Shown piece by piece: positions 3,492 to 32,000 of a stretch of 32,000 bases of DNA (its first letter is position 1; each line of letters starts with the position of its first letter). Origin of the DNA: Raphidiopsis brookii D9 (GTDB taxonomy: Bacteria > Cyanobacteriota > Cyanobacteriia > Cyanobacteriales > Nostocaceae). The notes under the pieces are model-generated. The model made no database searches. It saw only the letters and a program-made list of their open reading frames with translations, and was not told where the DNA came from. The stretch is taken from NCBI GenBank assembly GCA_000175855.1, contig ACYB01000037.1, forward strand, positions 100,451 to 132,450, read 5' to 3'. The position numbers and the translations under genes are program-made.

Positions 3492-3693
3492 TCCTCATAC
3501 CAATCTTATGCTGCATTAGGTTCCTGGACAGAGACGGAGATGTTCTGGTATCTGATTGCGATCGCCATGTCGTAGCAGATATTATAAGTTTAAGTTGAGT
3601 GCCATAGTGTCCAATAGATGAAGATAAAGCGGTTTGTACAAAACCAGATTATCATTGGTGAAAGTAGCGAACTGCTTGAGGTGAACCAGGATC

Positions 3694-11261: not shown

Positions 11262-11358
11262 CCTAGTTAACGCTGGATGTTATTTGTCAGCAAAGGATCA
11301 GCCACTTGAAATTCAGCTACGAGCCCCAGGTTTTGGAAGCATACTTGGGATAACCGGT

Positions 11359-15403: not shown

Positions 15404-15747
15404 TTCAACTACTTATTTCTAAATATAAAGTTTGTGTTGTTCTAGTGGAAAAAATGAAAGTTTATTGGCATTTCCCAAAAAGGTAAGCATGATACTTTTC
15501 GTCAATATAGGGAAATTTATCATAGGATTAAACAGTCTAAACTGTTTTCTATTCGTAAAGTAGCCACTAGCATCTATCCCAGGAAAGACAATTATTAGTT
15601 GAAACTAGTTGAGAACCTCTACCCCTTGGGTAGGGGATAAACAGGGGGAAAGATTTACCCTAGAGATGTTTATTTTCACCCAAAACCAAACATTCCGGGT
15701 GGGTAAGCGTGGCGGAATCTTAGATAGTAACCCAAGTTGATAGCTTC

Positions 15748-16770
15748 ATGACTGGAAAATTCGTAGAAATAGATCTTCCGGTTCATTATCTGGAAGGTAC
15801 GATGGTAGTGCAGGTTTCAAATCGTCTTAGCGTAAATGAAGCCATTTGCTTTAAAGAGACTTGCCGGGATCTAATTGAGTCTAACCTGGATTCTAAAGTT
15901 CTATTGATAGACTTTAATAACACAACTTTTATGGATAGTAGTGGGTTAGGGGCTTTAGTAAGTATTTTTAGGTCCGCTCAACAGAAGGGAATAGAATTGA
16001 CACTGGATAACGTAACCCCACAAGTGATGGCAGTCCTTAATTTAACGGGATTGGATCAGGTATTTATAATTAAATCTTCTGTAACCAATAAAACTTCAGA
16101 ATTGACTAACTCCGCAAACAGTTGTGTCAGTAATTGTAGACCAGAAGATCTACCATCAACTCATCCTTGTGTAAAGTCTAGGATGAAAAGAATTATTGAT
16201 ATAGTTGGGTCTTTAGTAGGGTTAGTAATTACAGTATGTTTATTGATTCCCATTGGGATTGCCATCAGCATCAATGATCCAGGTCCGATTTTTTTTAGAC
16301 AGATCCGTTGTGGGTGGATGGGTAAACGTTTTTATATTTGGAAGTTCCGTTCCATGTGTGTAGATGCGGAAGCCAAAAAGTCCCAGGTAAAAAATCAAGT
16401 AGCTGGGGCATTTTTTAAAAACGATCATGACCCTAGGATTACCAAAGTAGGACGTTTTTTGCGTCGCACCAGTCTGGATGAACTGCCACAATTTTGGAAC
16501 GTGTTAAAAGGGGAAATGAGTTTAGTTGGTACTCGTCCACCCACCCCTGATGAGGTGGAACTATACGAAGTGCCAGAATGGCAACGCTTAGACGTGAAAC
16601 CAGGGATGACTGGGGAATGGCAAGTAAATGGTCGCTCCAAAGTACGGAATTTTGAGGATGTTATTCGTCTGGACCTACAGTATCAGAAAAATTGGAGTTT
16701 AGTTTACGATTTGCAATTAATTGTTAAAACTATATCCATTTTATTTAATAAAAACAGTGGTGCTGTTTAA
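15748..16770 (+). CDS. STAS (anti-sigma antagonist-like) domain fused to a bacterial sugar transferase (polyprenyl-phosphate glycosyl-1-phosphate transferase)
   Basis: The N-terminal ~110 aa form a SpoIIAA-like STAS domain including [11 protein letters not shown]. Then come one TM helix ([22 protein letters not shown]) and the Bac_transf core: [11 protein letters not shown]..., [44 protein letters not shown]. Confidence 0.8.
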
Positions 16771-16873
16771 ATTCTCGGATAAATCCGGAAAATAGTCTGT
16801 TGTGGTTCATGACTCCCGTGGGATATAATGTTTTTAAAGACGCTCCGATGAACGTCTTTAAAATTGAGGGAAC

Positions 16874-17665
16874 ATGAGAACCACTAACCAAAAAATTATC
16901 CAGGTTGACGCTTTTACCAACAAACCATTTCAAGGTAACCCTGCTGGGGTTTGCGTGTTGACCAATTCCGAATCTGACGAGTGGATGCAGCAAGTAGCTC
17001 AAGAAATGAATTTATCAGAAACAGCCTTTTTGCTACCAGAAAATGACGGTTTCAATTTACGGTGGTTCACGCCAACCACAGAAGTTCCCCTGTGCGGTCA
17101 TGCTACCTTAGCTAGTGCCCACGTCCTCTGGTCAGAAGGATATTTATCACCAGAACAAAAAGCCCGATTTTATACTAAAAGTGGTCTATTGATTGCGAAA
17201 AAGCAAGATGATTGGATTGAATTAGATTTTCCCGTTAATCATTCCCAAATTGTGGAACCACCACCTTTATTAAATGAGGTTTTAGGAGTTGGTTACAAAT
17301 CAGTTTCTTTGAACTCCCTTGGTTATTTAGTGGAATTAGCCTCTCCACAATTAGTGCGACAAATACAGCCAGATTTCCAACAAATGAGACTGCTACCAGT
17401 CAAGAGTATGATTGTTACTAGCACCGGTGATCTGGAATATGATTTTATATCTCGTTTTTTTGCCCCCGGTTTTGGTATTGACGAAGACCCAGTAACTGGT
17501 GCTGCACATTGTTGTTTGGCTCCCTTTTGGCGATATAAACTGCAAAAAGATACTTTTTTAGCCTATCAAGCTTCTCAACGGGGCGGAATACTCAGAGTAA
17601 CCTATTCGGGAGGAAATCGGGTTTTTTTAAGCGGACAGGCTATTACCGTTGAGAACATTACCTAG
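16874..17665 (+). CDS. PhzF family isomerase-like protein
   Basis: VDAFTNKPFQGNPAGV, SETAFL, FTPTTEVPLCGHATLA and EDPVTGAAHCCLAPFW are typical PhzF/YddE family blocks. Confidence 0.85.
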   Translation: MRTTNQKIIQVDAFTNKPFQGNPAGVCVLTNSESDEWMQQVAQEMNLSETAFLLPENDGFNLRWFTPTTEVPLCGHATLASAHVLWSEGYLSPEQKARFYTKSGLLIAKKQDDWIELDFPVNHSQIVEPPPLLNEVLGVGYKSVSLNSLGYLVELASPQLVRQIQPDFQQMRLLPVKSMIVTSTGDLEYDFISRFFAPGFGIDEDPVTGAAHCCLAPFWRYKLQKDTFLAYQASQRGGILRVTYSGGNRVFLSGQAITVENIT

Positions 17666-17861
17666 AAAGCTTATTGGCTTTAACAGTCTCTAGGTCTGGG
17701 TTAATTCAAACAATCACGGTTAATTTCCTGGCGATCGCACTGAACTAACTCTCATGCGATCGCCCTTGAGGTTCCCGCACCACTGCATCCTCAAAACTAG
17801 TATAATGGGGGAGTCCTATGAGATTTAAATCATTTTGACGCTTCTTTAGTCTAAACTCCAG

Positions 17862-18350
17862 TTATTCAGCACTCAGTCCCTGTTTTTGCAATAAATCTGC
17901 TGCTTTTTGTAAGTCAGCAATGGCACCCTGATTATCTCCTAACCTACTGCGTACAACACCCCGATTGTAGTAAAAATCAGCGTGAGGGCTGAGCTTGATA
18001 GCTTGGTCTATTGCATCTATGGCTTCTTGATATCTTTTTAAATTAGATAATACTACCAATTTCTCATTATATAGATTGGGATTATTAGGCTGTAGTTTTA
18101 TAGCTTGATTAATAGCTAGTAATGCTTGATCAGATCTACCTAATTTTGTATTTGCTAAACTTAAAATAGTCCATGCTAGAACAGAATCAGATTTAGCTTT
18201 GACAGCTTCCTCTAAAGCTATTACTGCCTCCATAACTTTCCCACTCCTACTTAATGCTAAACCCTTGCCATAATAGGCTAGATGAATAAATTCTGGTTTC
18301 TGTTTAATTGCATTATCAAATGCTGTTATTGCCTCTGGATAACGACCCAA
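17862..18350 (-). CDS. Tetratricopeptide repeat protein (probably the surviving C-terminal part of a longer gene)
   Basis: Four to five TPR units (..EAI.AFD.AIK..P......Y.G.AL...G). The only start is a TTG, and the frame continues upstream with TPR-like sequence up to an in-frame TGA (see findings). Confidence 0.65.
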   Translation of the reverse strand: MGRYPEAITAFDNAIKQKPEFIHLAYYGKGLALSRSGKVMEAVIALEEAVKAKSDSVLAWTILSLANTKLGRSDQALLAINQAIKLQPNNPNLYNEKLVVLSNLKRYQEAIDAIDQAIKLSPHADFYYNRGVVRSRLGDNQGAIADLQKAADLLQKQGLSAE

Positions 18351-18405
18351 CCTCCATAGTTGATTTCCCGTTTCTAACCAATTAAATAGGTCAGTTCAAC
18401 CGGAT

Positions 18406-18435
18406 CACTATGGCGATTAACACTATGGCGATTAA
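18406..18435. repeat. Perfect 15-nt tandem duplication CACTATGGCGATTAA x2
   Basis: Direct reading: copy 1 at 18406-18420 and copy 2 at 18421-18435. On the minus strand it encodes LIAIV-LIAIV in a hydrophobic segment upstream of the TPR ORF. Confidence 0.95.
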
Positions 18436-18570
18436 GTAGTACATACCATAATTAATACCTTTGCCAATTTTCCAAATATAGGGCTGAAACCCAATAAAGA
18501 AACCCAATAAAATCGTCACGATATCAATACGGTTTCATAATTTTGGCAGCAGTATTAATAATTACTAACT

Positions 18571-20294
18571 TTACACTGAGTAGTGTCTTGATGTGTAAAC
18601 CCAGATGTTTCCCCCAAGAGATTGTATTTTCCTAGTATGGGAAGAGCCAACGATAATTAAAGTCCGCATATCCGCATCCTCGGGATTCAATTCCTCTAGA
18701 TTTGTAACTTTTAATCTTTGTCCAGGTCGACCAATATTGCTTCCTAATATTACAGGAGTATCAGGTTTTCTGTACTCCAATAATATATTCTTGGCTGCGG
18801 TTAATTGCCAAGTTCTTGACTGAGAAATTGGATTATAAAATACAATCACAAAATCCCCTTGCGCAGCATTAGTAATTCTTTGGACAATAACTTCCCAGGG
18901 TTTTAAAATATCAGAGAGAGAAATTACACAGAAATCATGTCCTAGGGGAGCACCTATGGTAGCAGCAGTGGCCTGCATGGCAGAAATACCGGGGGCTACT
19001 TGAATATCAATTGTCTGCCATTCTGGTTGATTATATTGACCTTTTTCTAGAACTTCAAAAACTGCTGTGGCCATGGCATAAATACCTGGATCTCCGGAAG
19101 AAACTACTGCTACATATTTGCCTTGCACAGCTAAATCTAGGGCTTTTTTGGCCCGGGATTCTTCTTCTCGATTGTCAGATTCATGTATGTTCTTGCCATC
19201 AGCTAATTCACCAATTAGGTTAATATATGTTTTGTAACCAACCAAATCAGTGGCATTCCGTAAAATTTCCTGAACTTCAGGAGACATCCATTGTACACCG
19301 CCTGGTCCTGTACCAATAATCGCTAGTTTTCCCCTCCCTTTGCCAATAGTTTCCGGATCGATAATGTCTGTGGCAATGCTCAGGGTGATGGGAGAAAATG
19401 GCGATTCAAATGATGTATGATATGTATTATTTCCCGTCATACCAGCAGCAACCACGGCTTCGTGAAAACTGTATCCTTTGTCAGTCAGTTCTTGTATTTG
19501 ATTTGTGGTTAAGAATCTGGCTGGTATGGAAAATGTTTTGCTAATTTCCTGCAAAATCGAATTATTAGCTAGGGAAAGAGGTGCAATTATCACTGCCAAT
19601 GCTTGAGAGGAAATTTCCGCTTGTGCTAATAGTTCATAAATATGGTTGATTGTTTCAACTTCAAGAGAAGATAGGGTAATCGCCACCCTTTGTGGATGAT
19701 AAACTAAACAATCAGGTGGGGGAATCAGGTGTTTTTCTGTAACTTGAATAGTTAATTCTCCCCTATCATCTATGGGCAAATTACTGGCACTCAACCAGGG
19801 AGCTGTTCCTTCTAATTTAACTTTTGCTCCTGCTAATAAATCAGCTATAAATTTTTTCCCATCCTCCACATTAGCTAAATAATACCCCCTGGGTGGAGAT
19901 AATAAAGCTGTGCGAAATCTTAAATCTCCCGTGGTTGTAATGGAGGGTTTGACATTTAAACCAGCTCCTATTTGCCGTGCTAGTTCGTTTACTCCAGTTA
20001 ACCCACCTAACAGGGGAACTACTGCACTACTATCTTCCGCTACAGCTAATAGGGGTGGTTCTTGATTTTTATTGGTAATCAGATGTGCTACTGTTCTAAT
20101 TAAAATCCCCGCAGCACATATACCAATTATGGGGTTCCCGTCACAAATAATTGTCTCAGGGTATCTCCAAAATCGGTAAAGCTCACATCCACATCACAGG
20201 TACGATTGGCTAAACCATATATTTTGGCACCCGGTATAACGCCAACAATTTTTTTTGCCACTGTGAGACTATTCTGACTGAGAATTATAACCAC
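18571..20294 (-). pseudogene. cobJ: CbiG / precorrin-3B C17-methyltransferase (CobJ/CbiH) fusion, interrupted by a 1-nt frameshift or sequencing error
   Basis: The C-terminal ~245 aa are a tetrapyrrole methylase (KLAIIGTGPGG...VSSGDPGIYAMA). Upstream is CbiG-like sequence (ICAAGILIRTVAHL...LLAVAEDSSAVVPLLGG..GVNELARQIG). CbiG homology continues from a GTG at 20294 in another frame (VVIILSQNSLTVAKKIVG...FVTGTP), which stops at 20129-20127. The frames join at the run 20131-20134. Confidence 0.75.
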
Positions 20295-20385
20295 CGGTTT
20301 TGTTGTGTTTTTTCTAATCTATCCATAATATTATTGTCACAATGTAGTTTGATGTAGTTAGCCTAAACTAGATTTAATTTGTAAA

Positions 20386-21090
20386 CTACAGTCTTTGTTT
20401 AGTAGGTATGACAATCATCGAAAAATAAGGTACTTCGTCAGGGTCTACCTCATCCAGTGGCACAATTCTCTGTTGTGTAGTAGTTGCGCGTTCAATATAC
20501 TTGGCTCGGGAATTTAATCCTAACTGATGCAGCACATCCCGGATTTTGACAAAATGACGACCGATCTTCATAATGGCAGCAGCATCAGCGGAAATAAGTT
20601 GACTAATTAGCATTTCCCTAGGAAGAGTACCCGGTAAAACCTTCAAAATATCATTATAATAAGTGAAAGGTACACCCAAAGAAATAGGACAAGCCATTAA
20701 AGAAGAAATCCCGGGCACCACCTCCGTCTCATACTTATCCGCAAGACGAGTAAATATATACATAAAAGATCCATAAAAAAACGGGTCTCCCTCGCATAAT
20801 ACCACCACATCCCGACCAGCTGCCAAATGTGACCCAATAGGTTCAACCTCGCGATCATAGATATCTTTAGCCTTTTCCGGTTCCAGAGCCCGGGGAAGAT
20901 GATATAAAACTTCTATTTGATTCCCAGGTAAGTAAGGAGAGACAATTTTTCTAGCAATACTTTCTCGATCTATGGCTGACTGATAGGCAATAACAGAAGC
21001 AGAACGTATTAAACGCAATGCTTTTAATGTTAACAGTTCCGGATCTCCAGGACCAACACCAACTCCATACAAACGACCTTTTAAATTCAT
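20386..21090 (-). CDS. cobI: Precorrin-2 C20-methyltransferase (CobI/CbiL)
   Basis: GRLYGVGVGPGDPELLTLKA, VVVLCEGDPFFYGS and VVPGISS are methylase blocks typical of CobI/CbiL. The start overlaps the cobH stop by 4 nt. Confidence 0.9.
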   Translation of the reverse strand: MNLKGRLYGVGVGPGDPELLTLKALRLIRSASVIAYQSAIDRESIARKIVSPYLPGNQIEVLYHLPRALEPEKAKDIYDREVEPIGSHLAAGRDVVVLCEGDPFFYGSFMYIFTRLADKYETEVVPGISSLMACPISLGVPFTYYNDILKVLPGTLPREMLISQLISADAAAIMKIGRHFVKIRDVLHQLGLNSRAKYIERATTTQQRIVPLDEVDPDEVPYFSMIVIPTKQRL

Positions 21091-21716
21091 GTTTCTTCCT
21101 CGGATGCTAGCGCATTAATAGCAGAAGCAGCGATCGCACTTCCACCCCGTCTACCATGTAAAGTTAAAAATGGCACACCACGACTATTCTCCGCCAGGGC
21201 GGCCTTAGATTCAGCAGCGCCGACAAAACCTACAGGAAAGCCTAAAATCAGAGCTGGACGTGGTACTCCTTCATCCAACATTTCCAGCAATCTAAATAAT
21301 GCCGTAGGGGCATTACCAATAGCTACAACCGCACCATCAAGATGAAATCGCCATAGTTCTAGAGCTGCTGCTGAACGGGTATTGCCTAATCGTTTAGCTA
21401 TTGTGGGCACTTCTGGATCATTCAAAGAACAAATAATAGCATTCGTAGTAGGTAATCTTTTTTTAGTGATTCCCTGTGCAACCATCTGACAATCACATAA
21501 AATAGGCGCACCAGAAGCCAGGGCGTTTTTGCCTAAATTTACCGCATCTAGTGAATATGCTAAGTCTTTTACTATATCCGTCATACCACAGGCATGAATT
21601 AAGCGTACAGCTATCTTTGCTACATCCTCCGGGAGACTATCTAATTCTGCTTCCGAGCGGATAATATCAAAAGACTTTTTGTATATTTCTCCAGCATCTC
21701 GTATATAATTATACAT
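21087..21716 (-). CDS. cobH: Precorrin-8X methylmutase (CobH/CbiC)
   Basis: RLIHACGM, AIGNAPTALF, LILGFPVGFVGAAESK and GGSAIAAS are typical CobH/CbiC blocks. Length is 209 aa. Confidence 0.9.
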   Translation of the reverse strand: MYNYIRDAGEIYKKSFDIIRSEAELDSLPEDVAKIAVRLIHACGMTDIVKDLAYSLDAVNLGKNALASGAPILCDCQMVAQGITKKRLPTTNAIICSLNDPEVPTIAKRLGNTRSAAALELWRFHLDGAVVAIGNAPTALFRLLEMLDEGVPRPALILGFPVGFVGAAESKAALAENSRGVPFLTLHGRRGGSAIAASAINALASEEET

Positions 21717-21756
21717 AAACTATACATAAAATAGAAAAATTGCAAGACTAAAAAGA

Positions 21757-23313
21757 CTAAACTGAGAGTTGAGATATATCATAACGATTGGCAAACTCGG
21801 TAAAAGATTCTTGAGGGCTCAGACGATTAAGTATATATACTTTGAATATGTTTTCCATAAGCTGAGGTAATTGGGCAAAGGGGAAATTTTCATAAATTGG
21901 GCGGTGAATATTATTACCAATATACACTTGATATCCTGGGACAGATTGATCTTCTTGCTCAATATTGACCCCAAGCAATGTAATATCACTTTCAGTGTGT
22001 TGGGCGCAAGACTTAGGACACCCAGTGAAATGAATATTAATATGGGAGTCCAGATTTATATGGGTTTGTAAATATTCGCTTAATATCAGGGCATGGGTTT
22101 TTGTGTCCGTAGCAGAAGCGGAGCAACCACTGGTTCCGGAACAGGAGACTAACCCACTTTTTATGTTTGTAGGTGAGTAGTCAAGCTCCAAATCATGAAT
22201 TTCTGAAGTTACCGAAGAAAGGTGTTGTTGAGGAATATCACTGAGCAGTAAATTTTGCCAAGGGGTTAGTCTCAGTTGACCAGAGCCATATTGGCTTGCC
22301 ATATTAGCCAATCGACGAACTTGCCAAGTTTGTAATCGCCCCAGGGGTAAAACTAGACCAACATAAAACATTCCTGATTGTTTTTGGGGATGAATACCCA
22401 GATGGAAAACCTGGTCATGTTTTTGCGAGTTAAATTTGTGATTAGGCAAAAGGTTTAGAGAGGGAGCATGGGAGGCTTGAAATTCCAGATCCCTTATCTG
22501 TTCCAAATCAAGTAACCTATTTTTATGTAAAAGCACTAAAATTTTATGTAAGAAACATTGCCATCCCAAATCGTCAATTACTTCTCGTAATCGGGGTTTA
22601 CGTTTAGAAAAGCACTCTTTAGAAAGCAAAGTGTATTCTAGATAAACTTGTGCCACAGATGCCAACATGGGTATAGATTGTTCAGGAGTCAAACAAAGAG
22701 AGAAATGCGGGGAAAAATTTTCCTTTCCAGTGGCACAAAAATAAAAAATGGGATATATTAATTTATGTCCCCATTTCCCCGTAGGAAAGAACTTCGGTTC
22801 TTTCCTACCCCCCCCAGGAAGTAAAGGAGTAGCATCCAGAGCAGTAAGGGATATATCATTGGGGAACTTGGCGATAGAGACTTTACCACCACCATCAAAA
22901 CCCACACTAAACTTGGCTGAAAGCTCTGCAAGTTGGGGTTGACCACTAACATATTGCTCCCAATCTTGAACAAGCGGGCGAACATCTATTAACTCTCCTG
23001 GGTCTATACCGGCGGTAGGGCTGGTCATGATGTTGCGGAGATGGTCTATAGCGGGATTAACAGCAGCCATACCAGAGGTTTGTAAGGTGTGCAGGTCACC
23101 CGTACTTACTTCCCGCTGAATTTCTCGAATTTGTAAATTAGCGCGATTAGTAATATCAACATAGCCACCCCCATAATTATCAGCCATATTAGCGATGAGG
23201 TGAAATTGTTGGCTATTTAAAATACCACTAGGAGTGCGGATGCGACAGAGAATGCCATCTTGGGCAAGAGTGTTATAAAACAGACCCGGACAAGCTGTAA
23301 ATGGACTTAACAA
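21757..23313 (-). CDS. cobG: CobG-like precorrin-3B synthase (nitrite/sulfite reductase ferredoxin-like half-domains)
   Basis: The N-terminus CPGLFYNTLAQDGILCRIRTPSG...ITNRANLQIREI is CobG-like. A C-terminal cysteine cluster (VSCSGTSGCSASATDT...FTGCPKSCAQH) resembles the sirohaem/Fe-S site. TTG start at 23313, 7 nt after AAGGAG. Confidence 0.75.
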   Translation of the reverse strand: MLSPFTACPGLFYNTLAQDGILCRIRTPSGILNSQQFHLIANMADNYGGGYVDITNRANLQIREIQREVSTGDLHTLQTSGMAAVNPAIDHLRNIMTSPTAGIDPGELIDVRPLVQDWEQYVSGQPQLAELSAKFSVGFDGGGKVSIAKFPNDISLTALDATPLLPGGGRKEPKFFPTGKWGHKLIYPIFYFCATGKENFSPHFSLCLTPEQSIPMLASVAQVYLEYTLLSKECFSKRKPRLREVIDDLGWQCFLHKILVLLHKNRLLDLEQIRDLEFQASHAPSLNLLPNHKFNSQKHDQVFHLGIHPQKQSGMFYVGLVLPLGRLQTWQVRRLANMASQYGSGQLRLTPWQNLLLSDIPQQHLSSVTSEIHDLELDYSPTNIKSGLVSCSGTSGCSASATDTKTHALILSEYLQTHINLDSHINIHFTGCPKSCAQHTESDITLLGVNIEQEDQSVPGYQVYIGNNIHRPIYENFPFAQLPQLMENIFKVYILNRLSPQESFTEFANRYDISQLSV

Positions 23314-23364
23314 AGCGATTCTCCTTCCCCGTGCGACGCGGGGACAGAATAGGTGTAGGCTCAG

Positions 23365-23497
23365 TTCTTAGAAGTGGCATTCTGACTTGTGCAACTTCAG
23401 ATTTTAGACATTCCCCAATTGGGAGTCCAAAACCCGAGATTGCCTTACAGCTGCGGCACAGTCCCGGTATTGCACCGGAGTTTCCCAAACCTAAGAA
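23365..23497 (-). promoter_or_regulatory. Cobalamin (B12) riboswitch aptamer leading the cobG-cobH-cobI-cbiG/cobJ operon
   Basis: The minus strand reads GGGAAACTCCGGTGCAATACCGGGACTGTGCCGCAGCTGTAAGG (conserved core, from 23486 downward). A B12-box-like AAGTCAGAATGCCACTTC lies at 23388-23371. P1 can form between TTCTTAG (23497-23491) and CTAAGAA (23371-23365). A GC hairpin CCCCG-N7-CGGGG abuts the AAGGAG Shine-Dalgarno sequence. Confidence 0.8.
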
Positions 23498-23606
23498 TTT
23501 GGCAAATCATCAGAAATCCTATTGTATCACAATGACGTCACTTGAAAGTTTTTGAGGTCCCCAAATACTCTTGGTCATTGTATAATAAAATTAGAATGTA
23601 CATCCT

Positions 23607-24368
23607 TTGACAAATCTTATCTCTGTGGGAGTAATATACATAGGCGATCGCGCAACAGGTAAAACTCATTTAGCTCTGGAGTTAGCCAACCCCAAACATG
23701 AATATGTGAAAGTTAACAGTCTAGACTATGACGAGCTTAGTTCATTGTTACTAGATGAGAACTTGCAGACCAGGCCTACTGAAAACTTTTTATACAACCG
23801 GTATTTAGATATGAATATTCAATTACCGTCTGGTAAAAAGCAGGTTACGGTCGATTGGGTTGATATAGGAGGGGAAGTATGGAGGAAAAGTTGGCAAAGG
23901 GACAATTCTAACCAATGGCATGAGTTCTTAAAAGCGATTCGCGATAGTGAGGGAATTCTACTAATTCTTCCACCCCATCGGGGAATGACATTCAAACCAG
24001 GGGTAGATGCAGAGGAGTTTCCCACCCAAAAACAATGGTGTAATCGTTTTGAACGCTGGGTAACATTTTTCTGTGACCAGTGTCCTAAAATCAGACACTT
24101 GGCCCTTTGCCTTAACAAAGCCGATTTATTTTGTGATTTATCCGCAGAAGGTCAAAAACTGGCCTATAAGCCCTACAATAGTCCCTATAATTGGCAACAA
24201 CGACATGAACATGTACTAAGAAAATACTTTCGTCCCGTGTATGCCCAAATCGAGAGATTAGGTCAAGGCGTGGGCAGTCCATCTGTAAAGTGTTTTATCA
24301 CATCAATTTACCATCGAGGCTTATTAGAACTACCTTGGATTTACCTAGGCAGTTTTTTGGGTAAGTGA
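23607..24368 (+). CDS. P-loop GTPase-like protein, paralog 1 (most divergent) of the candidate system
   Basis: G1 GDRATGKT, G3 DIGGE (VDWVDIGGEVW), strand ILLILPP, G4 NKAD, then ITSIY. The start is uncertain: TTG at 23607 or GTG at 23625. Confidence 0.75.
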   Translation: MTNLISVGVIYIGDRATGKTHLALELANPKHEYVKVNSLDYDELSSLLLDENLQTRPTENFLYNRYLDMNIQLPSGKKQVTVDWVDIGGEVWRKSWQRDNSNQWHEFLKAIRDSEGILLILPPHRGMTFKPGVDAEEFPTQKQWCNRFERWVTFFCDQCPKIRHLALCLNKADLFCDLSAEGQKLAYKPYNSPYNWQQRHEHVLRKYFRPVYAQIERLGQGVGSPSVKCFITSIYHRGLLELPWIYLGSFLGK

Positions 24369-24452
24369 GATCAATATGTTAACCTTGGAGAAATTATACT
24401 ACAGGACTCTGGAAAAGTTACTACACTTAAACAATCATAAAAGAGGGGAGAA

Positions 24453-25289
24453 ATGGGTAATATCCACATAATCGGACCACGGGCTGCGGGTAAGACCACT
24501 TATTTAGCAGCTTTAGCCTACCAACCAAACATATCAAGACGACGCTATAAACAAGCAAATTTTAAGGTGCAGGCATTAAATGACGAAACCAGAGAACTAG
24601 CGGAAAAAGCGGAAAACATAATTTTGGAAGGAGCTTCTTTAGAGCCCACCACCAAATATATAAAAACCATTGAGGACGTGAAAGTGTACTCATTTTTAAT
24701 TGAAATCAAGCGGAAATGGCAACCAACCCAAAAACTTAATTTAGCAGTGCGGGACTACCCAGGACTAGTTTTTGATGAGCTGGAGTCTGCTTCTTCCGAC
24801 TCTATACATGAAGAGTTTATGAATGAGTGCTTCAGTCAAGATACTCAAGGGTGTTTGATCTTATTGACCGAGTGGCAACAGGGAACAGACAAATTTTATA
24901 GACGAGTATTCAGAAGATTTATAGACTTGATGGATCAACAAGGAAGATTGCAAGATTTGCGATTGGCCCTTGCCATTAGTAAATGTGAAAGAGGGGAATT
25001 ATGGCCTGGTCGGTTAGATCCAGAAAATGACCTATTTGCTATTCACTTCCCCGACACACTGCATTTATTAAAAGATAATATCCCCCAGAAAAACTTAGGA
25101 TTTTATGCCATGTCCACCTTTGGGGTGTTAGGTAGCAAAGATCCCCGACCTAACCGTAAATTAGAAGGAGAACACGACATGTACTCTGTTTTGAGAGATC
25201 CTGACGAATGGTCGCCATACTGCATGATTTCCCCCCTTTATTGGTTGAGTACAGGTAAGAGGATGCAGGAAAATGCTCAACATATTTAA
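24453..25289 (+). CDS. P-loop GTPase-like protein, paralog 2
   Basis: ATG preceded by AGAGGGGAG. G1 GPRAAGKT, DxxG-position DYPGL, strand CLILLTE, G4-position SKCE, G5-like MSTFG. C-terminal motif WSPY...SPLYWL. Confidence 0.8.
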   Translation: MGNIHIIGPRAAGKTTYLAALAYQPNISRRRYKQANFKVQALNDETRELAEKAENIILEGASLEPTTKYIKTIEDVKVYSFLIEIKRKWQPTQKLNLAVRDYPGLVFDELESASSDSIHEEFMNECFSQDTQGCLILLTEWQQGTDKFYRRVFRRFIDLMDQQGRLQDLRLALAISKCERGELWPGRLDPENDLFAIHFPDTLHLLKDNIPQKNLGFYAMSTFGVLGSKDPRPNRKLEGEHDMYSVLRDPDEWSPYCMISPLYWLSTGKRMQENAQHI

Positions 25290-26147
25290 AAATAAAGATC
25301 AATCCTCGTCACAAAGTAGTATAGTTCTGAGAGTAATAGGCGATCGCTTTGCAGGAAAAACCGCCTATATGGCATCCCTAGCCAGGTGGCCTAATGCTAG
25401 TCCTGACAGTCCAGTCCAGACAGTGGTCCCCGTAGACGAAGGAGGAGAAGACCTAGTCAACAAAGCTCAAAACATCCTAGAGCAAGGATTGCAACTAGAA
25501 TTCACAACTCTAGAGAACCCAGATCAGATCAGAGACTGTACCCTACAAATCACCATAAAACAGAAAAATTGGGTTCCCAACTACTGAACCTAAACATTAG
25601 CCACAAAGACTACTCAGGTGAGTTTTTCCGTGACCTTCTGCATCGGAATCAAGATCCCCTATTGCAGGAATATTTAGAAGACTGTGTACAAGCTAATGGT
25701 ATTATGTTCCTAGTTGATGGTAACAGTAGGCGCAAAGACCCGGAGTATGCCAATGGCTTAGACAAATTGTTAATAGCATTAGACCGACATGATATAGGAG
25801 GGATGAAGCGAAGAATAGCTCTAGTTTTGAACAAATGTGAACAATCTGACCTATGGGTAAATCGGGATAAACCGGCATTTTTAGCATCAGCTAGATTTCC
25901 CCAAGTTTCCCAGAAATTAAAAGTCTGGCAACAAATGGGGGGAGGGGAAGTAGAGTTTTTTACAGCATCTGCTTTTGGCATGTTAGGTACCAAATATCCA
26001 GAGCCCAACGTTAACCTAGTACAAAAAGATAGGGGAGGAGTGAGTGCGGTGATCAAAAACCCCAAATTGTGGCGACCATTTGGTTTGGTTGCACCCATTT
26101 ATTGGCTTTGTAAAGGTTCACGTCATCCAGATCTAGATAAAAGTTAA
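25273..26147 (+). pseudogene. P-loop GTPase-like protein, paralog 3, split into ORFs 25273..25587 and 25569..26147 by a 1-nt frame change
   Basis: ORF 1 carries G1 GDRFAGKT. ORF 2 carries DYSGE, IMFLVDG, NKCE, ASAFG and WRPF...APIYWL. Alignment to paralog 2 (IEIKRKWQPTQKLNLAVRDYPG versus ITIKQKNW / GSQLLNLNISHKDYSG) places the junction at the GGG run 25571-25573. The start overlaps the paralog 2 stop by 17 nt. Confidence 0.7.
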
Positions 26148-26206
26148 GAAATTAGCGATTGTAAAACTGGTGAGAGGATCAATATTTAAACATCAGGTTG
26201 GAAAAA

Positions 26207-26234
26207 TTAACTTAGCAACATTAACTTAGCAACA
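26207..26234. repeat. Perfect 14-nt tandem duplication TTAACTTAGCAACA x2 ending on the A of the 26234 start codon
   Basis: Direct reading: copy 1 at 26207-26220 and copy 2 at 26221-26234. Confidence 0.95.
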
Positions 26235-28507
26235 TGAATTCCCAATATCTTGAGATTCACGAATTTAGTACAGGTATTCACGTTCAAAGACGGGATAACG
26301 GTTGGGTTTCCGTGGGATTTACAGGAAAATATATGAACTCAACCATAGATCCAATTCCTACGGTCGTAGAGAGGTCAATTGCTAATGAAGAATTTGCCCT
26401 AACAGAAGGTTCGTCAGCAGAGAAACCTGCGATTGTTGGGAGGGTATTGAAGGATGGGGATGATATATGGTCAGTAATAGCAGTAGTCAGCAGAGGAAAA
26501 GACGAAGTAGGAAGAAGTGCGGGATTTTATCGTTATTTTTTATGTCGCGGAGACAACAACCTAAGGTTGATATTAGCTTGGTGGGAAGAAAAGGGTCAAC
26601 CGAGATTTAACCCTCTAGAAGCTGTACAAAAGTTCCATATTTTTACGGGAGAAGCACCTCGTCCCTTACGTAAGACAGAAGACATGTCTTTACCATTTGA
26701 GGAATCAGACCCTATAGTTTTAGCACCTGAGACCCAACAAGACTTATATACCCTCAACTCTCTAGCGATTAGAAAAGCCAATTCTTCCAACAACAAGTTA
26801 CCAGTATCTTGGGCTTTTAATGTGGAAGGACTGGCAAAACCCGGACGTTTTCAAATCATTCAACCTTCATCACAAAAGGCTTACAAACAAATAAAAGAAC
26901 AAATTAGCAACTATCGTCAAAATGAAGCTCTTATTGATGAAGCTGCCCTAAAATCTGCCCTTCGTGGTTTAATAAATAGTTCTCAAGTCAAACCCGAAGC
27001 AGTAGGGGTAATTGTGAATGGCGTAACCAATAAGGAAATTACCCCTGAATATTGGGAGAATTTGTTTAATAGCCAAGGTGCGAACCAAGGGATTAGGCAG
27101 AAAATTTATAGTCCACAAATGGTGAAATTAGTTACGCTTAGAGCATTAGTTCTTCCAAAAACCTTGCCAGAATTTCTGGGTTGGTTGAACATTCAAGCAA
27201 GTAAAAAGGTCAACCAAAACCAGATGGTATCTTTACAGTTTCAACAAGCCATTAAGGAATTATTTCCCAAGGAGAAGGTAGCAGAAGGTATTGGATATTT
27301 ATTGCCCAGTTTACTTGATGGTAATATATCACCAGATGGCTTATCTTGGTTATTGGCGAAAAATGGCAGTAATAGTATTTGGTCCTATGCTCAAAAACAG
27401 TTTGTGAATGATGTTAGAAATGATTTACAACTAATTTTTGACCAGTATAAAAACTCAAAATCTCTGAATTTTGATGGGGGTAACCTTAAATGCGAAATAG
27501 GGGTTTGGAATCAATTAATTAGAGGTTGGCAGGGTATTCAGAGGAGATATTATAAATGTGAGGAATATCGACCCTTAGCAGAGCTATTTGAGGAATTTAG
27601 AGAAGATGATTTAGCTGCATATTTTTATCAAGTCAGTGATGGATTAGTCAATAAAAAACTATTTGGGCGACTAGCTGATTCACAAAGAAGTGGGTATCCG
27701 GTTGTTTTTGGCTTACCGATTAAGCGCAAAGAAACTTTGATTGATGTTTTGATTAAGTTTATTAACCAGTTTGTTAACCAGGATATAGATATGAAGATTT
27801 TGTATGTTGCTCCCATATCACTATTAATTTTAGGTAGTGGTTGGTTTGTTGGATCGAAAACTTGGCATGCTTATGTTAGTCAAAATGATATTAACAATCA
27901 CCTGTGTAAAGAGTCACAGAAACCTGAGAATTGCTCCGTCATAGTTTTGGATGATACAAAGCATTATTCCTTCAAAGACATTCAGAGAATTATTCCCCAA
28001 GTTGTAGATGATTTGTTAAAAAAGAGGGAAGCGGAAGAAAAAAAGAAATATGAGGAGGCCAATAGTAGTGGTGTGAACCAAACACCACCATCAAGAAAAA
28101 GCAACTTTGATATCAAAGCAGAATTGATAAACAAGGTAAATCAAACTTTGCCAAAAATTTTGGCAGATCCTACATTGAAGTATGATGAAATAGATTCTAA
28201 GAATGCACAGAATGTAGATACAAACATTCAAAAAAAATGGTTGATAGCAGTATATAATTATCAAATTAAACGAAAAGCAGGAAAGAAAATAAAAAAAGTC
28301 CAGGTCGAGGAGTGTAAATTCCCTCTGTTTTGGAGATGTTTTCCAGGACAGGAGGTGACAGTTACCAAGGATGAAATAGATGATTATCCATTGAGGAAGA
28401 AATTAGCAGAAGACATAAATTATGCTATGCGATTATCAAAATCGAAAAACAGAGTCAGAGTAAGTAAAATTAGCAATTTGCAAATTAATTTACAGCTCCC
28501 AAATTAA
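26234..28507 (+). CDS. Large single-pass membrane protein A of the candidate system (757 aa): unique N-terminal domain, shared helical core, TM helix, shared C-terminal module
   Basis: Long ORF with one strongly hydrophobic segment, ILYVAPISLLILGSGWFVGS (about 27797-27858). Residues from about 238 onward are paralogous to the next gene. I recognise no catalytic motif. Confidence 0.8.
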   Translation: MNSQYLEIHEFSTGIHVQRRDNGWVSVGFTGKYMNSTIDPIPTVVERSIANEEFALTEGSSAEKPAIVGRVLKDGDDIWSVIAVVSRGKDEVGRSAGFYRYFLCRGDNNLRLILAWWEEKGQPRFNPLEAVQKFHIFTGEAPRPLRKTEDMSLPFEESDPIVLAPETQQDLYTLNSLAIRKANSSNNKLPVSWAFNVEGLAKPGRFQIIQPSSQKAYKQIKEQISNYRQNEALIDEAALKSALRGLINSSQVKPEAVGVIVNGVTNKEITPEYWENLFNSQGANQGIRQKIYSPQMVKLVTLRALVLPKTLPEFLGWLNIQASKKVNQNQMVSLQFQQAIKELFPKEKVAEGIGYLLPSLLDGNISPDGLSWLLAKNGSNSIWSYAQKQFVNDVRNDLQLIFDQYKNSKSLNFDGGNLKCEIGVWNQLIRGWQGIQRRYYKCEEYRPLAELFEEFREDDLAAYFYQVSDGLVNKKLFGRLADSQRSGYPVVFGLPIKRKETLIDVLIKFINQFVNQDIDMKILYVAPISLLILGSGWFVGSKTWHAYVSQNDINNHLCKESQKPENCSVIVLDDTKHYSFKDIQRIIPQVVDDLLKKREAEEKKKYEEANSSGVNQTPPSRKSNFDIKAELINKVNQTLPKILADPTLKYDEIDSKNAQNVDTNIQKKWLIAVYNYQIKRKAGKKIKKVQVEECKFPLFWRCFPGQEVTVTKDEIDDYPLRKKLAEDINYAMRLSKSKNRVRVSKISNLQINLQLPN

Positions 28508-28641
28508 AACCCAGGCTGTGAATCTCAAGAGGGACTACCCAATAAAGGAATCACTATTTCTTGAAGTAGTCCAATTACAAAACAGGCGATCGCTCGTTGT
28601 CTTTATTACATAAGTATGGATATGTAGAGGTTGAACTCAAT

Positions 28642-30255
28642 ATGAATATACTTGATCAGATCACTAATGGTATCCATATAGGAAATAACCTCATGAATCC
28701 AGAAACCCAAACTTCTCTAAAAGTAGCCATGCGCAAAATAATCCATAGCTCCCAAATAAAACCGGAAGCAGTGGAGGTAATTGTAAGCGGACTGCAAAAT
28801 AGTGAAATTAGCGCTGAAGATTGGGAAGACCTTTTCAACAGAGAGGGGGCTAATATTGCCATTAAACAAAAAGTTTATAGCCCCCAACTAATACGACTAA
28901 TAACACTTAGAGCATTAGTTCTTCCAAAAACCTTGCCAGAATTTCTCGGTTGGTTGGAAATTCAACCAGGTAAGAAGGTCAACCAAAACCAGATAGTGTG
29001 TTTACAGTTTCAACAAACCATTAAGGAATTATTTCCTAGGGAGAAGGTACTAGAAAGCATTGGATATTTATTGCCCAGTTTACTTGATGGTAAGATATCA
29101 CCAGATGGCTTATCTTGGTTATTGCAAAAAGGTGATAATAGTATATGGAGTTACGCTCAAGAACAGTTTATTCATAATATTAAATATGATCTATTGTTAA
29201 TTGGTGATCACCACCCTAAATCAAAAGAAAACATTTCTCATCAGACATCCTTTAAATTTGGATCACAAGTCTGGAATCAATTAATTACAAGTTGGCAAGA
29301 TATTAAAAAAGGTAATTATAAATGTCAACAATATCGACCTTTAGCTCAATTCTGTGAGCAATTGCAAGAATACGACTTAGCTGCATATTTTTATCAGATC
29401 AGTAACAGCAAAGTTGGCAAAAAACTATTCGTCCAGTTATGCCTTTTAAAAAATTGCCAGTCACCAGTTGTTTTTGGTTTAACCATTGAAAAAAGAAAAC
29501 CCCCAATTGATGTCATAATTAATGTTATTAACCAGGATGTAGATATGAAAATTTTGTATGTTGCTCCCATATCACTACTAATATTAGGTAGTGGTTGGTT
29601 TGTTGGTTCCAGAACTTGGCATTCTTACATCAACACCAGTGAAGCTAAGGAATATTTGTGCAAGCAATCAGTTAATGGTCGGGACTGTTCAGTAATAGTT
29701 TTTGACGGCAAAGATCACTATTCCTTTCAGGATATTCAAACAGCAATTACTAAAGTGGTGGATGAAGTTTGGCAAGGGAAGCAAAAATCGAAACTAAAAA
29801 ATTCTAATATGCAAGAAAAAATTACAAGAACACTGCCACTAATTTTGGCAGACAAAACACTCAAATATAAGGATTTGCAGCTGAGTACAGGTAAAATAGA
29901 GCCAAAGATTGAAAGACAATGGATAATTGCCGTGTATAATTATCAACTTAAACACAAGCTACAGAAAAAAATAACTCCACAAAAAGGTGAGGAGTGTAAG
30001 GGAAGTAATATATTTGGGTTATGTTTATTAGGAGAGAAAGTTAAAAAAATTAGTATAGATTATTCTCCATTGGAAAAACGATTAAAAGCTGATATCAATA
30101 AGGTGATGACACTGACAGCTATAAATGAAGCTATGGGAAAAAGATATTGGAGTGCAACTAAGTATGCGATTAACACAATTATATTAACGACAATCAAAAA
30201 CAATAATTTGGATAATAATCCAGAAAAAAACAAAATCGGCAATTTCAGATCCTAA
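28642..30255 (+). CDS. Large single-pass membrane protein B (paralog of A, lacking the N-terminal domain)
   Basis: Collinear with A from SSQIKPEAVEVIV onward, with the same TM helix (about 29551-29612) and post-TM module. ATG at 28642 is preferred; the longest ORF begins at a TTG at 28597. Confidence 0.8.
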   Translation: MNILDQITNGIHIGNNLMNPETQTSLKVAMRKIIHSSQIKPEAVEVIVSGLQNSEISAEDWEDLFNREGANIAIKQKVYSPQLIRLITLRALVLPKTLPEFLGWLEIQPGKKVNQNQIVCLQFQQTIKELFPREKVLESIGYLLPSLLDGKISPDGLSWLLQKGDNSIWSYAQEQFIHNIKYDLLLIGDHHPKSKENISHQTSFKFGSQVWNQLITSWQDIKKGNYKCQQYRPLAQFCEQLQEYDLAAYFYQISNSKVGKKLFVQLCLLKNCQSPVVFGLTIEKRKPPIDVIINVINQDVDMKILYVAPISLLILGSGWFVGSRTWHSYINTSEAKEYLCKQSVNGRDCSVIVFDGKDHYSFQDIQTAITKVVDEVWQGKQKSKLKNSNMQEKITRTLPLILADKTLKYKDLQLSTGKIEPKIERQWIIAVYNYQLKHKLQKKITPQKGEECKGSNIFGLCLLGEKVKKISIDYSPLEKRLKADINKVMTLTAINEAMGKRYWSATKYAINTIILTTIKNNNLDNNPEKNKIGNFRS

Positions 30256-30313
30256 ACCATCTGCTGAAGGAGAGTCCATAAAATTACCGGAAGAACAGAC
30301 ATTAACAAAGGAT

Positions 30314-30559
30314 TTGATATTTGAGCTAATACTTAAAAACTTGGATGTAAACCAGTACAAAAGTATTAAATATGGTGACTTTAATACAGATAAAATTCAA
30401 CAGACTCACAAAAGAAGGATTGCTCAGTCTATCTATAAGTTCCAAGAGTCACAAAAAAACCCTCAACCAACAGGATACTTAGACTATAAATCAGCAGAGT
30501 TCGGCGAATTGAAACGTAAAATATCTGAACAACTACCAATATCGAATACTCCTCTCTAG
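30314..30559 (+). CDS. Small ORF trailing the cluster; may be a detached C-terminal extension of protein B
   Basis: An 81-codon ORF with only a TTG start. Its frame is open upstream to 30188, overlapping the end of protein B. It contains RRIAQSIYKFQESQKNPQPTGYLDYKSAEFGEL. Confidence 0.35.
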   Translation: MIFELILKNLDVNQYKSIKYGDFNTDKIQQTHKRRIAQSIYKFQESQKNPQPTGYLDYKSAEFGELKRKISEQLPISNTPL

Positions 30560-30726
30560 ACCACCAAGATATTAACTGAAGTTTAGACTAAAGACAGGAG
30601 CGATCGCTTGTCTAATAGATAATGATGGATGATGTTGGCTTTCGTTTTGGCAGAGGCTAAAAAACAATATTCTTCATGTTATTTCTGGTAATATGCTTCA
30701 GGGACAGTTTTTAAAAACCTTAATCA

Positions 30727-31596
30727 ATGGAATCCAATATCTTTACATCCCTGATATTACCTATCGCCTTAGGAGCAATGATGCTTGGTATGGGTTTATC
30801 CCTTGTGCCAGAAGACTTTCAGCGAGTGGGTAAATATCCAAAAGCTGTGGCAATTGGGTTAATCAGCCAGTTACTCATACTACCCCTCATTGGGTTAGCG
30901 ATCGCAAAGTTTTTACCCATGCAACCTGCGATCGCTACAGGTTTGATGATTTTGGCCTTATGTCCAGGGGGGGTCTCCTCAAATTTGGTGACATTTTTAG
31001 CAATGGGTGATGTAGCTTTAAGCGTTACACTGACAGCCTTGAGTAGTTTAATTACCGTATTTACGATTCCCATTTTTGCAAATCTGGCTAGTCAACATTT
31101 TTTTTGGGCAAGGTGCAGTAGTGGAGTTGCCAATTGGAACGACTATTGGGCAAATTTTTGCAATTACCTTCTTACCAATAGCGATTGGTATGAGTATTCG
31201 GCAATTTGTGCCAAAACTGTCTACAAAACTAGAAAGGTGACTAGTATCTCTGCTACCATACTATTAGCAGTAATTATTTTGTTGCTGATCATTAAAGAAT
31301 GGAGCCGCCTACCGAATTTTATTGTTCAAGTTGGGATCGGTGTTTTGCTGTTAAATACTCTTTCAATGGGGGCGGGATTCTATTTGAGCAAACTTTTTAA
31401 TCTTAATTACAAGCAACAAATTTGTATCAGCATTGAGGTGGGTATGCAAAACGGAACTCTGGCGATCGCCATTACTGCAGGATTGCTTAATAATCCAGAC
31501 ATGGCAATTCCTGGAGCAATTTATAGCTTGCTGATGTATTTGACGGGATGTATGGTGATCATCTATGGGCGTAATTTGTCTGCATCCAGAGTATAA
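30727..31596 (+). CDS. Bile acid:Na+ symporter (BASS) family transporter; open frame with an internally frame-swapped ~44-codon segment
   Basis: The N-terminal part (LGMGLSL...LILALCPGGVSSNLVTFLAMGDVALSVTLTA) and the C-terminal part (ISIEVGMQNGTLAIAIT) are BASS-like. Codons covering 31105-31239 read WARCSSGVANWNDYW..., while the adjacent frame reads GQGAVVELPIGTTIGQIFAITFLPIAIGMSIRQF, which is BASS-like. Confidence 0.75.
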   Translation: MESNIFTSLILPIALGAMMLGMGLSLVPEDFQRVGKYPKAVAIGLISQLLILPLIGLAIAKFLPMQPAIATGLMILALCPGGVSSNLVTFLAMGDVALSVTLTALSSLITVFTIPIFANLASQHFFWARCSSGVANWNDYWANFCNYLLTNSDWYEYSAICAKTVYKTRKVTSISATILLAVIILLLIIKEWSRLPNFIVQVGIGVLLLNTLSMGAGFYLSKLFNLNYKQQICISIEVGMQNGTLAIAITAGLLNNPDMAIPGAIYSLLMYLTGCMVIIYGRNLSASRV

Positions 31597-31646
31597 GAGA
31601 TAGCTATTATTCTATAGAAAATCTCCACACCGGGTGAGTAGCTTAA

Positions 31647-31784
31647 TATTTGTTATTAACCGTTATTCATCACCAAGAAAGTTCCAGTCGTCAAAACACA
31701 GTTGATGCTCTAGAACAAATAATTGTCAAACTAAAGAGTAGGGGATTTGAGTTCGCTACTCTTAGTGAAACTATTTTGGGTTAA
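31647..31784 (+). pseudogene. C-terminal remnant of a polysaccharide deacetylase (NodB-type) gene
   Basis: An open frame without a start reads ILLLTVIHHQESSSRQNTVDALEQIIVKLKSRGFEFATLSETILG*. This resembles the usual C-terminal end of NodB-homology deacetylases (..HD....T..AL..II..LK..GY.F.TL.E). No upstream part is present. Confidence 0.35.
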
Positions 31785-32000
31785 ACTTTTTTGTGCAAGA
31801 TTCTCCTTCATCTAAAAACCTGTCCATATTGTCCGGATCACCATGCACTGCCCAATATGCTACTGTTGTATATGCATGGTTTTTTGCTGGCATAATTCAC
31901 GGGGCGATCGCTTGATTACTTAATTTTCTATTATAATTATACAATCTAGCTGCATGACAGCTTATCTAATAGTTTTAGATATTATATAATTGGGTAATTG

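Follow-up and report, generated by a model that had tools for sequence, protein, structure and literature searches.

What kind of system is encoded by a compact run of same-strand genes in the cyanobacterium Raphidiopsis brookii D9, and does it resemble any system already described? We analysed this run (positions 23607 to 30559) within a 32,000-nucleotide (nt) stretch of contig ACYB01000037.1, hereafter the window, whose positions serve as coordinates throughout. An earlier note on this DNA had proposed a unit of six genes, encoding three GTPases (G1, G2 and G3), two large membrane paralogues (A and B) and a small trailing open reading frame (ORF). We find that the region is a four-gene core, G1-G2-G3-A, plus a second, truncated copy of A (B). 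The core is very probably that of a DO-GTPase-type system, and would define a cyanobacterial branch for a class of systems that has so far only been predicted. In our best reading, the closest known kind is the GAP1-N2-type GTPase-centric system, of which the cluster is an uncharacterised cyanobacterial variant, and its role is most likely one in biological conflict (defence or self/non-self discrimination) over housekeeping.

A conserved four-gene core

Pattern-based locus scans, whose counts are lower bounds, place G1, G2 and G3 directly upstream of A in 60 of 68 cyanobacterial genome loci; among metagenome loci, A lies downstream of G3 in 58 of 58 cases, and G1 and G2 lie upstream in 47 of 48. 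Whether the GTPase genes and the membrane-protein gene occur together was the question on which the proposed system had been staked, and they do so in both directions. This two-way co-conservation shows the functional unit to be the four-gene core, whose members are essentially always found together, rather than the six genes originally grouped; the core is strict and usually sits within a conserved, envelope-associated cluster of about 14 genes that is present in most cyanobacterial carriers and absent here. The best 120–150 matches in each hit list were all cyanobacterial orthologues, and a literature search found no paper on a cyanobacterial G1-G2-G3-A cluster.

All cluster ORFs lie on the + strand, and our ORF map reproduces the same-strand layout and the spacings first noted: G1 ends at 24368, 84 nt before the start of G2 at 24453; G2 and G3 overlap by 17 nt; 86 nt separate the end of G3 (26147) from the start of A (26234); 134 nt separate the end of A (28507) from the ATG of B (28642); and 58 nt separate the end of B (30255) from the small ORF (30314). 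For within-species comparisons, in which the window strain and strains of Cylindrospermopsis raciborskii are taken as one species, we used LUBZ01000031 (L005), a sister assembly that is 98% identical over window positions 18569-31999, and VHLJ01000001 (L006), which has the locus at the same site next to cob genes.

Three DO-GTPase-family paralogues

G1 (23625-24368; 247 amino acids (aa) from GTG), G2 (24453-25289; 278 aa) and G3 (25273-26147; 291 aa once repaired) all carry Walker A, DxxG-position and NKxD-position motifs, in agreement with their initial assignment to TRAFAC-type GTPases. These motifs read GDRATGKT, DIGGE and NKAD in G1, GPRAAGKT, DYPGL and SKCE in G2, and GDRFAGKT, DYSGE and NKCE in G3, such that the Asp of the NKxD position is retained in G1 and replaced by Glu in G2 and G3, which have (S/N/T)KCE. 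G1, which has one-to-one orthologues across cyanobacteria, probably starts at GTG 23625 rather than at TTG 23607, from which its ORF is open, because the resulting N-terminus (MGVIYIGDR) matches those of the orthologues (MGV(V/I)YIGDR). G2 and G3 are paralogues with 31% identity (E = 1e-37); between G1 and G2, BLAST detects no similarity, yet the two align motif for motif.

A link to the DO-GTPases had been suggested in the earlier note, and for the GTPases it is borne out by profile and motif. Against Pfam DO-GTPase1/2, the window G1, G2 and G3 score 25.5, 18.8 and 18.9 bits (G1 vs. DO-GTPase1, E = 9.8e-6), just below the 27-bit gathering cut-off of the DO-GTPase models (PF19975 and PF19993), and orthologues from T. 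variabilis exceed this cut-off (G2, 29.7 bits for DO-GTPase1; G3, 27.2 bits). Across 21 family members, DO-GTPase1 is matched by 17 (best E = 1.3e-10) and DO-GTPase2 by 16. A conserved Walker-B glutamate (DxxGE) is the signature of the DO-GTPase family (Kaur et al. 2020, eLife 9:e52696). This glutamate is kept in all three orthologue groups, as seen in five further genomes, and in G1 and G3 of the window. A search of solved structures found no sequence relative of G1-G3. Together, these results show G1-G3 to be three anciently diverged DO-GTPase-family paralogues.

The G2 Walker B of the window (24753-24767) reads DYPGL, as it does in L005, with L006 and the other orthologues keeping the glutamate (DYPGE). 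The residue corresponds to Gln61 of Ras; judging from the Q61L change in Ras, Leu here may abolish hydrolysis, so that the G2 subunit of the window strain may be hydrolysis-dead, locked or a pseudo-GTPase.

G3, first taken for one intact ORF, is split in the window into two (25273-25587, 104 aa; 25569-26147, 192 aa) by a 1-nt indel in a homopolymer: the window has a run of five A (25564-25568) where L005 has six and an intact 291-aa gene, to which the repaired window G3 is 100% identical. There are six 1-nt differences between window and L005 in all, every one in a homopolymer (20131, 20308, 25564, 31098, 31233 and 31787). Those at 20131 and 20308 break a cobJ/cbiG-like gene (a 432-aa ORF in the window vs. 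585 aa in L005), and the +1/-1 pair at 31098/31233 scrambles the middle of the BASS gene downstream. Because all six indels are homopolymeric and also break cob and BASS genes, the G3 split is most likely a sequencing error, and the window assembly seems to carry homopolymer errors more generally. We weighed a programmed -1 frameshift in G3 and discarded it, since the site is a plain A-run and like homopolymer indels disrupt unrelated genes.

As a side observation on the coding sequence, the P-loop I-G-D-R codons of G1 (23640-23665) and G3 (25336-25361) read ATAGGCGATCGC, a stretch that includes the cyanobacterial HIP1 octamer GCGATCGC.

A new family of membrane partner proteins

A (26234-28507; 757 aa) and B share 53% identity over A residues 236-735 (about 500 aa; E = 4e-176), and a hydropathy scan finds one hydrophobic helix in each, so that both their paralogy and their single transmembrane (TM) helix, read from the letters at the outset, hold. 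The TM helix of A covers aa 522-540 (ILYVAPISLLILGSGWFVG; 27797-27853) and that of B lies at 29551-29607. An alignment of the A family resolves five regions: a very conserved N-terminal module (N-module; aa 1-130 plus 161-232), then a variable linker, a helical domain, the TM helix and a tail. A is a bitopic membrane protein whose cytoplasmic part is conserved and whose C-terminal part is hypervariable, with a single TM helix between them. From the alignment and an AlphaFold2 (AF2) model, the cytoplasmic N-module extends over aa 1-232 (26234-26929); it is the most conserved part of the family, with the motifs IHEFSTGI, GRS..YRYF and WAFNVE. It is followed by a conserved, all-helical cytoplasmic domain that is common to A and B (aa 233-515; 26930-27778), whose helices (H236-H515) are modelled with a predicted local distance difference test score (pLDDT) of mostly 85-95.

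The post-TM domain (27869-28507) is hypervariable between alleles. It carries Cys pairs and a degenerate PG_binding_1-like C-terminal motif, and as this motif is of a wall-binding-like kind, both features suggest that the domain is periplasmic. Across the family the tail ends in the motif W..AIYxYQ...DGII...TYxxLKxDI, and PG_binding_1 itself is matched below threshold in some members (best 21.6 bits vs. 23).

The large proteins had been said to fit no described family, and our searches agree: A, B and the small ORF matched nothing above noise in Pfam, NCBIfam or PADLOC, and profile searches with full-length A and with the N-module found nothing among PDB sequences. An exhaustive profile search with A retrieved 298 cluster representatives at E<=1e-30, a number that rises to 537 at E<=1e-3, so that A represents a new partner-protein family of about 300-540 clusters at 50% identity, for which Pfam, NCBIfam and PADLOC have no model and whose members RefSeq annotates as 'hypothetical' throughout. 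The suggested tie of A and B to the GAP1-N/M/C families was not upheld: scanning of 45 A-family members (36 at E<=1 and 9 more at E<=0.01) gave no match in any of them, nor any to GASH or FNIII models, and the GAP1 analogy therefore rests on gene position and architecture.

AF2 models, built from shallow alignments of 36 and 20 sequences, reached a pLDDT of 79 for full-length A and a pLDDT of 86 with a predicted TM-score (pTM) of 0.86 for the N-module, which has an alpha+beta fold. Foldseek comparison with the PDB placed TagF at the top for both models (N-module: E = 2.8e-3, probability 0.75-0.82, TM-score 0.2-0.26), with FNIP2/FLCN, GATOR1, an archaeal longin and PAS/LOV domains among the lower-ranked N-module matches; comparison with viral structures returned nothing. 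We treat a longin/TagF-like alpha+beta platform in the N-module as a lead from modelling, not a result. Weak as it is, this fold signal makes it doubtful that, as first stated, the GTPases have no roadblock-like partner.

The extended cluster in other cyanobacteria

In most carriers A is followed by about ten further genes, for about 14 in total, in the order G1-G2-G3-A-X1-X2-X3-ARC6_IMS-(serine hydrolase)-vWA-127aa-vWA-FHA-PP2C-kinase. This order is common to Anabaena sp. 90, Dulcicalothrix and T. variabilis, where it lies on a 35.8-kb plasmid. When GTDB species genomes were scanned, it held in 78 loci, and it is kept from Nostocales to Trichodesmium, Spirulina and Pleurocapsales; X1 and X2 lie downstream of A in 49 of 57 loci. 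Inspection of the sequences gives X1 five TM helices and an FHA-like C-terminus, and X2 a vWA domain and a TM helix. By the same inspection, X3 and the ARC6_IMS protein are lipoproteins, and about eight TM helices are present in the cluster's 592-aa vWA protein. The serine hydrolase is membrane-anchored and class-A beta-lactamase-like. The PP2C is the sole extended-cluster protein with a PADLOC match, to the candidate model PDC-M21C (for the Dulcicalothrix PP2C at 18936-20762 of locus L004, aa 370-576, E = 5e-11).

The carriers are all cyanobacteria, including Nostocales, Microcoleus, Trichodesmium, Okeania, Hormoscilla, Spirulina, Pleurocapsales/Xenococcaceae, Gloeothece and others; a 2-kb contig binned as 'Actinomycetales' is probably mis-binned. 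Trichodesmium, Dulcicalothrix and Anabaenopsis have two copies per genome, and homologues are found on eight cyanobacterial plasmids, some of them conjugative. Only the core and further copies of A are present in the window strain, in L005 and L006, and in a small number of other lineages: the window holds no homologue of X1 to PP2C, and no X1 from Cylindrospermopsis is among the best 120 of 407 X1 relatives.

The composition of the full cluster raises the question of whether the system is a signalling machine for envelope or cell-wall homeostasis and morphogenesis rather than a conflict system, with A and the lipoproteins monitoring peptidoglycan or the septum and the GTPases, together with FHA, PP2C and kinase, regulating wall synthesis or filament integrity. 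The ARC6_IMS lipoproteins, the beta-lactamase-like serine hydrolase and the PG_binding_1-like motifs would all suit such a machine, as would the mostly filamentous habit of the carriers and the fixed chromosomal site in three C. raciborskii strains. A housekeeping role would, however, predict conserved, single-copy genes, and what we observe is a patchy distribution with several copies per genome (two each in Trichodesmium, Dulcicalothrix and Anabaenopsis), plasmid-borne copies, about 50% divergence within one species next to flanks that are 92-99% identical, and loss of the whole downstream module in C. raciborskii. On balance we regard a wall machine as rather unlikely, and keep a role in conflict as the preferred reading.

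A second copy of A and the state of the window locus

B (28597/28642-30255; 537 aa from ATG 28642) is a truncated paralogue that lacks the 235-aa N-terminal module of A and keeps the helical domain, the TM helix and a variable post-TM domain. The small trailing ORF (30314-30559; 81 aa), which had been counted as a gene of its own, is the displaced C-terminus of B: in L005, B is 646 aa long, and its final 81 residues are the very sequence of this ORF, which has a second AQSIYKFQ...TGYLD...LKRKI motif. Relative to L005, B has been shortened by an 11-nt deletion at 30225 between TAATCCAGA repeats, and A differs in its last ~28 residues because 5 nt (TATGC) are duplicated in tandem at 28421. L006 has full-length second A copies with the N-module, and A is found in tandem in 16 of 82 loci, commonly in N-terminally truncated form, as with B. 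The 103 nt around the TM-coding segment are 91% identical between A (27771-27873) and B (29525-29627), compared with 72-74% elsewhere; such a near-identical segment could reflect gene conversion or provide a recombination handle for swapping outer domains.

Whether the system is active in the window strain is uncertain, given the truncation of B and the missing Walker-B glutamate of G2. Might the cluster of this genome then be a decaying, non-functional remnant of a larger system? The complete absence of the X1-to-kinase module fits that description, as do the B copy with its lost N-module and 11-nt deletion, the 5-nt duplication at the A C-terminus and the Leu in G2. We nevertheless consider a remnant improbable: a homopolymer sequencing error best accounts for the apparent frameshift in G3; the ORFs of G1, G2, G3 and A are intact; between the window and L005, only one of the 545 cytoplasmic residues of A is changed; and the reduced layout of G1-3 plus A (with or without a second A) recurs in other lineages, Anabaenopsis and Okeania among them, which suggests a viable minimal form.

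Polymorphism within the species

The locus is highly polymorphic within the species. Compared with L006, amino acid identity is 97% for cobI, 99% for cbiC and 92% for the sirohaem-type reductase on the flank, vs. 77% for G1, 78% for G2, 73% for G3, 51% for A and 46-49% for B. Against Dolichospermum the corresponding values are 66%, 76%, 79%, 50% and 39-42%, and since the two sets are so similar, divergence within the species is about as large as that between genera. At the nucleotide level, identity to L006 falls from 89% to 77% between 23501 and 23558, in the intergenic region between the cobalamin riboswitch and G1. Fourteen further A-family proteins from Cylindrospermopsis/Raphidiopsis share 51-57% identity with the window A allele and 65-97% with one another.

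This variation is concentrated in the outer part of A, where identity to L006 is 72% in the N-module, 59% in the helical domain, 73% in the TM helix and 32-33% after it. Even against L005, at 98% identity, 28 of the 30 changed codons of A fall within residues 595-726 and are mostly non-synonymous, with a single residue difference in the cytoplasmic 545 residues. Mutagenesis of this patch by a diversity-generating retroelement was considered and rejected, as the substitutions are not adenine-specific; family scans of the cluster ORFs gave no match to a reverse transcriptase, the rest of the window not having been scanned.

The earlier note had judged that the cluster does not look like an obvious mobile island. 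The locus does keep its site in the strains compared, and the judgement is misleading in that the locus is hypervariable within the species and has plasmid-borne homologues. In L006, positions 15620-22322 hold a fragment of an N6_N4 methyltransferase and a DEAD/ResIII/Helicase_C/MZB protein of 1786 aa, with no BASS gene downstream of the cluster; because these genes stand where the window has the BASS gene, the right flank too is strain-variable, and it has the look of a defence island.

Phage defence is poorly charted in bloom-forming, toxin-producing cyanobacteria. The polymorphism of the periplasmic domain marks a candidate immune or recognition locus in such organisms, namely Cylindrospermopsis, Dolichospermum, Aphanizomenon and Trichodesmium. 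One form that recognition could take is allorecognition of kin or of self vs. non-self, with the variable domains of A and its tandem copies (A') as recognition determinants and the GTPases transducing match or mismatch. The allele classes at a fixed locus in one species are what such a locus would show; tandem full-length and truncated A copies combine different outer domains with the near-identical TM segment as a possible recombination handle, and filamentous or colonial cyanobacteria are over-represented among the carriers. The variable domain, on the other hand, is placed in the periplasm, behind the outer membrane, where it would be hard to expose to other cells, no secretion or adhesion domains are found, and no toxin/immunity pair is recognised. 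Allorecognition in this strict sense therefore strikes us as very doubtful, and we return to the broader reading of a conflict or recognition system.

Relation to known systems

Several features tie the cluster to the DO-GTPase/GAP1 systems: adjacent paralogous TRAFAC GTPases with the Walker-B glutamate and DO-GTPase1/2 Pfam matches, a large multi-domain partner encoded directly downstream of them, a constant core alongside a component that varies even between close relatives (here GTPases at 73-78% vs. post-TM A at 32-33%), and a bias toward multicellular bacteria. In the GAP1-N2 type the partner often has C-terminal TM, extracytoplasmic or wall-binding domains, and A shares this membrane proximity; linked kinase, PP2C and vWA genes likewise recall one GAP1-N2 theme, which was described as confined to actinobacteria (Kaur et al. 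2020). In contrast to these systems, there are three GTPase paralogues here instead of one or two. They have no N-terminal zinc ribbons and start directly at the P-loop strand with no Cys clusters; such ribbons, one or more, occur in ~60% of DO-GTPase members (Kaur et al. 2020). The partner A, moreover, matches no GAP1-N1/N2/M/C Pfam model, neither GASH (N1 type) nor FNIII repeats (N2 type) are matched in the proteins of the window and T. variabilis clusters, and the 5TM-FHA, lipoprotein/ARC6_IMS and multi-TM vWA genes are specific to the cyanobacterial cluster. Cyanobacteria are not among the phyla listed in the text for either type (Kaur et al. 2020, eLife 9:e52696). Given that no GAP1 domain is detected and that gene set and phylum differ, we do not file A as a GAP1 protein.

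A second comparison is with the threonine-phosphorylation pathway of type VI secretion systems (T6SS), which comprises the PpkA kinase, the PP2C PppA, Fha1, TagF and the periplasmic/lipoprotein TagQRST. TagF acts via binding of an FHA protein (PMC5995506). The full cyanobacterial cluster similarly joins FHA, PP2C, Ser/Thr kinase, vWA and periplasmic lipoproteins, and TagF is the best, weak structural match of the A N-module. Unlike in that pathway, no T6SS structural genes occur in any neighbourhood inspected, the TagF similarity is not significant and has no counterpart among PDB sequence matches, T6SS regulation involves no GTPases, and the window has no FHA, PP2C or kinase genes. A literature search found no statement of the fold class of TagF (longin/DENN).

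MglA-MglB and Rag with Ragulator, FLCN-FNIP and GATOR1 are small-GTPase platforms built on longin/roadblock folds. The cluster would share with them the pairing of a GTPase and a partner of alpha+beta sandwich fold by which its nucleotide state is set, as proposed here for A, and FNIP2/FLCN, GATOR1 and an archaeal longin are among the weak N-module matches, far from significant. The N-module differs in its strand order (3+3 vs. 2+3 in longins) and has no sequence relationship to these platforms, and the GTPases are DO-type, not Ras-, Arf- or Rag-like. Were the N-module to prove a longin-type regulator of GTPases, a tie would emerge between bacterial conflict systems and the eukaryotic longin-GTPase regulators DENN, FLCN/FNIP and GATOR1.

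Proposed role and its weighing

We propose that A acts as a transmembrane sensor or adaptor, whose variable and probably wall-associated periplasmic domain would sense an envelope-level cue, for example attack by phage, the presence of foreign cells or damage to the wall. The conserved cytoplasmic platform of A would bind the GTPases as a hetero-oligomeric trio and shift their nucleotide state, with the trio serving as a threshold switch. In most cyanobacteria this switch might feed, or be gated by, the linked module of 5TM-FHA, membrane vWA, lipoprotein, FHA, PP2C and Ser/Thr kinase proteins; C. raciborskii would have the sensor-switch core only. As to a conflict or recognition role with this flow of signal, we stand evenly between belief and doubt, and hold the individual steps with less confidence.

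A number of observations weigh against this reading. No phage-encoded homologue was found, PADLOC-DB v2 gives only noise (E>=0.0025) for the window proteins, and no recognisable effector domain (nuclease, protease, TIR or pore) occurs anywhere in the window. The putative interaction of the GTPases with A is read from synteny only, and DO-GTPase systems are themselves known from computational prediction only (Kaur et al. 2020, eLife 9:e52696). On the partner side, Pfam detects no GAP1 domain in the 45 A-family members, the longin/TagF-like signal is not significant (no Foldseek PDB match at E<=1e-3, TM-score 0.2-0.26), and the PG-binding-like motif is sub-threshold and undetected in the C. raciborskii proteins. 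The occurrence of the locus at the same site in the window, L005 and L006 fits allelic polymorphism as well as a defence island, and the lipoproteins, serine hydrolase and ARC6_IMS protein of the full cluster fit a cell-wall function equally.

The most specific version of the proposal is a self-contained transmembrane GTPase switch of an as yet undescribed kind, in which an allele-specific periplasmic domain, connected by one TM helix to a longin/TagF-like platform, and a hetero-trimeric DO-GTPase would together carry out envelope immune or self/non-self sensing in filamentous cyanobacteria; taken as a whole, we think this unlikely. The system offers a tractable test case for the GTPase-centric class, for example on the 35.8-kb plasmid of T. 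variabilis.

Flanks and neighbouring genes

The flanks of the window cluster are those first described, a riboswitch-controlled cob operon and a BASS transporter. The divergent cob operon has a cobalamin riboswitch at 23358-23523 on the - strand (Rfam RF00174, 36 bits vs. a cut-off of 31.5), which forms the left edge of the strain-variable region, and an SBF/BASS-family gene lies downstream of the cluster. Elsewhere in the window are a bacterial small signal recognition particle (SRP) RNA (2145-2241; 58.8 bits) and a tRNA-Arg(CCG) gene (11189-11263); as both lie away from the cluster, there is no tRNA-linked integration site.

Across cluster loci, the neighbouring genes include a MoxR/GUN4/SUMF1 system, a restriction-modification pair, TraG and a DEAD/ResIII/MZB helicase. 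On the T. variabilis plasmid, a DUF6232 protein (5675-6235 of locus L001) with a weak match to CyanoTRADDas_TM, another domain tied to predicted conflict systems, is encoded ~1.3 kb upstream of G1. On a plasmid of Tolypothrix sp. PCC 7712 (1-8500 of locus L085), the region ~3-11 kb upstream of the GTPase cluster encodes a MoxR ATPase, a SUMF1/FGS enzyme, a WD40 protein and GUN4-domain proteins. The set is reminiscent of the VMAP/MoxR-vWA ternary systems described by Kaur et al., which would place two predicted conflict systems side by side.

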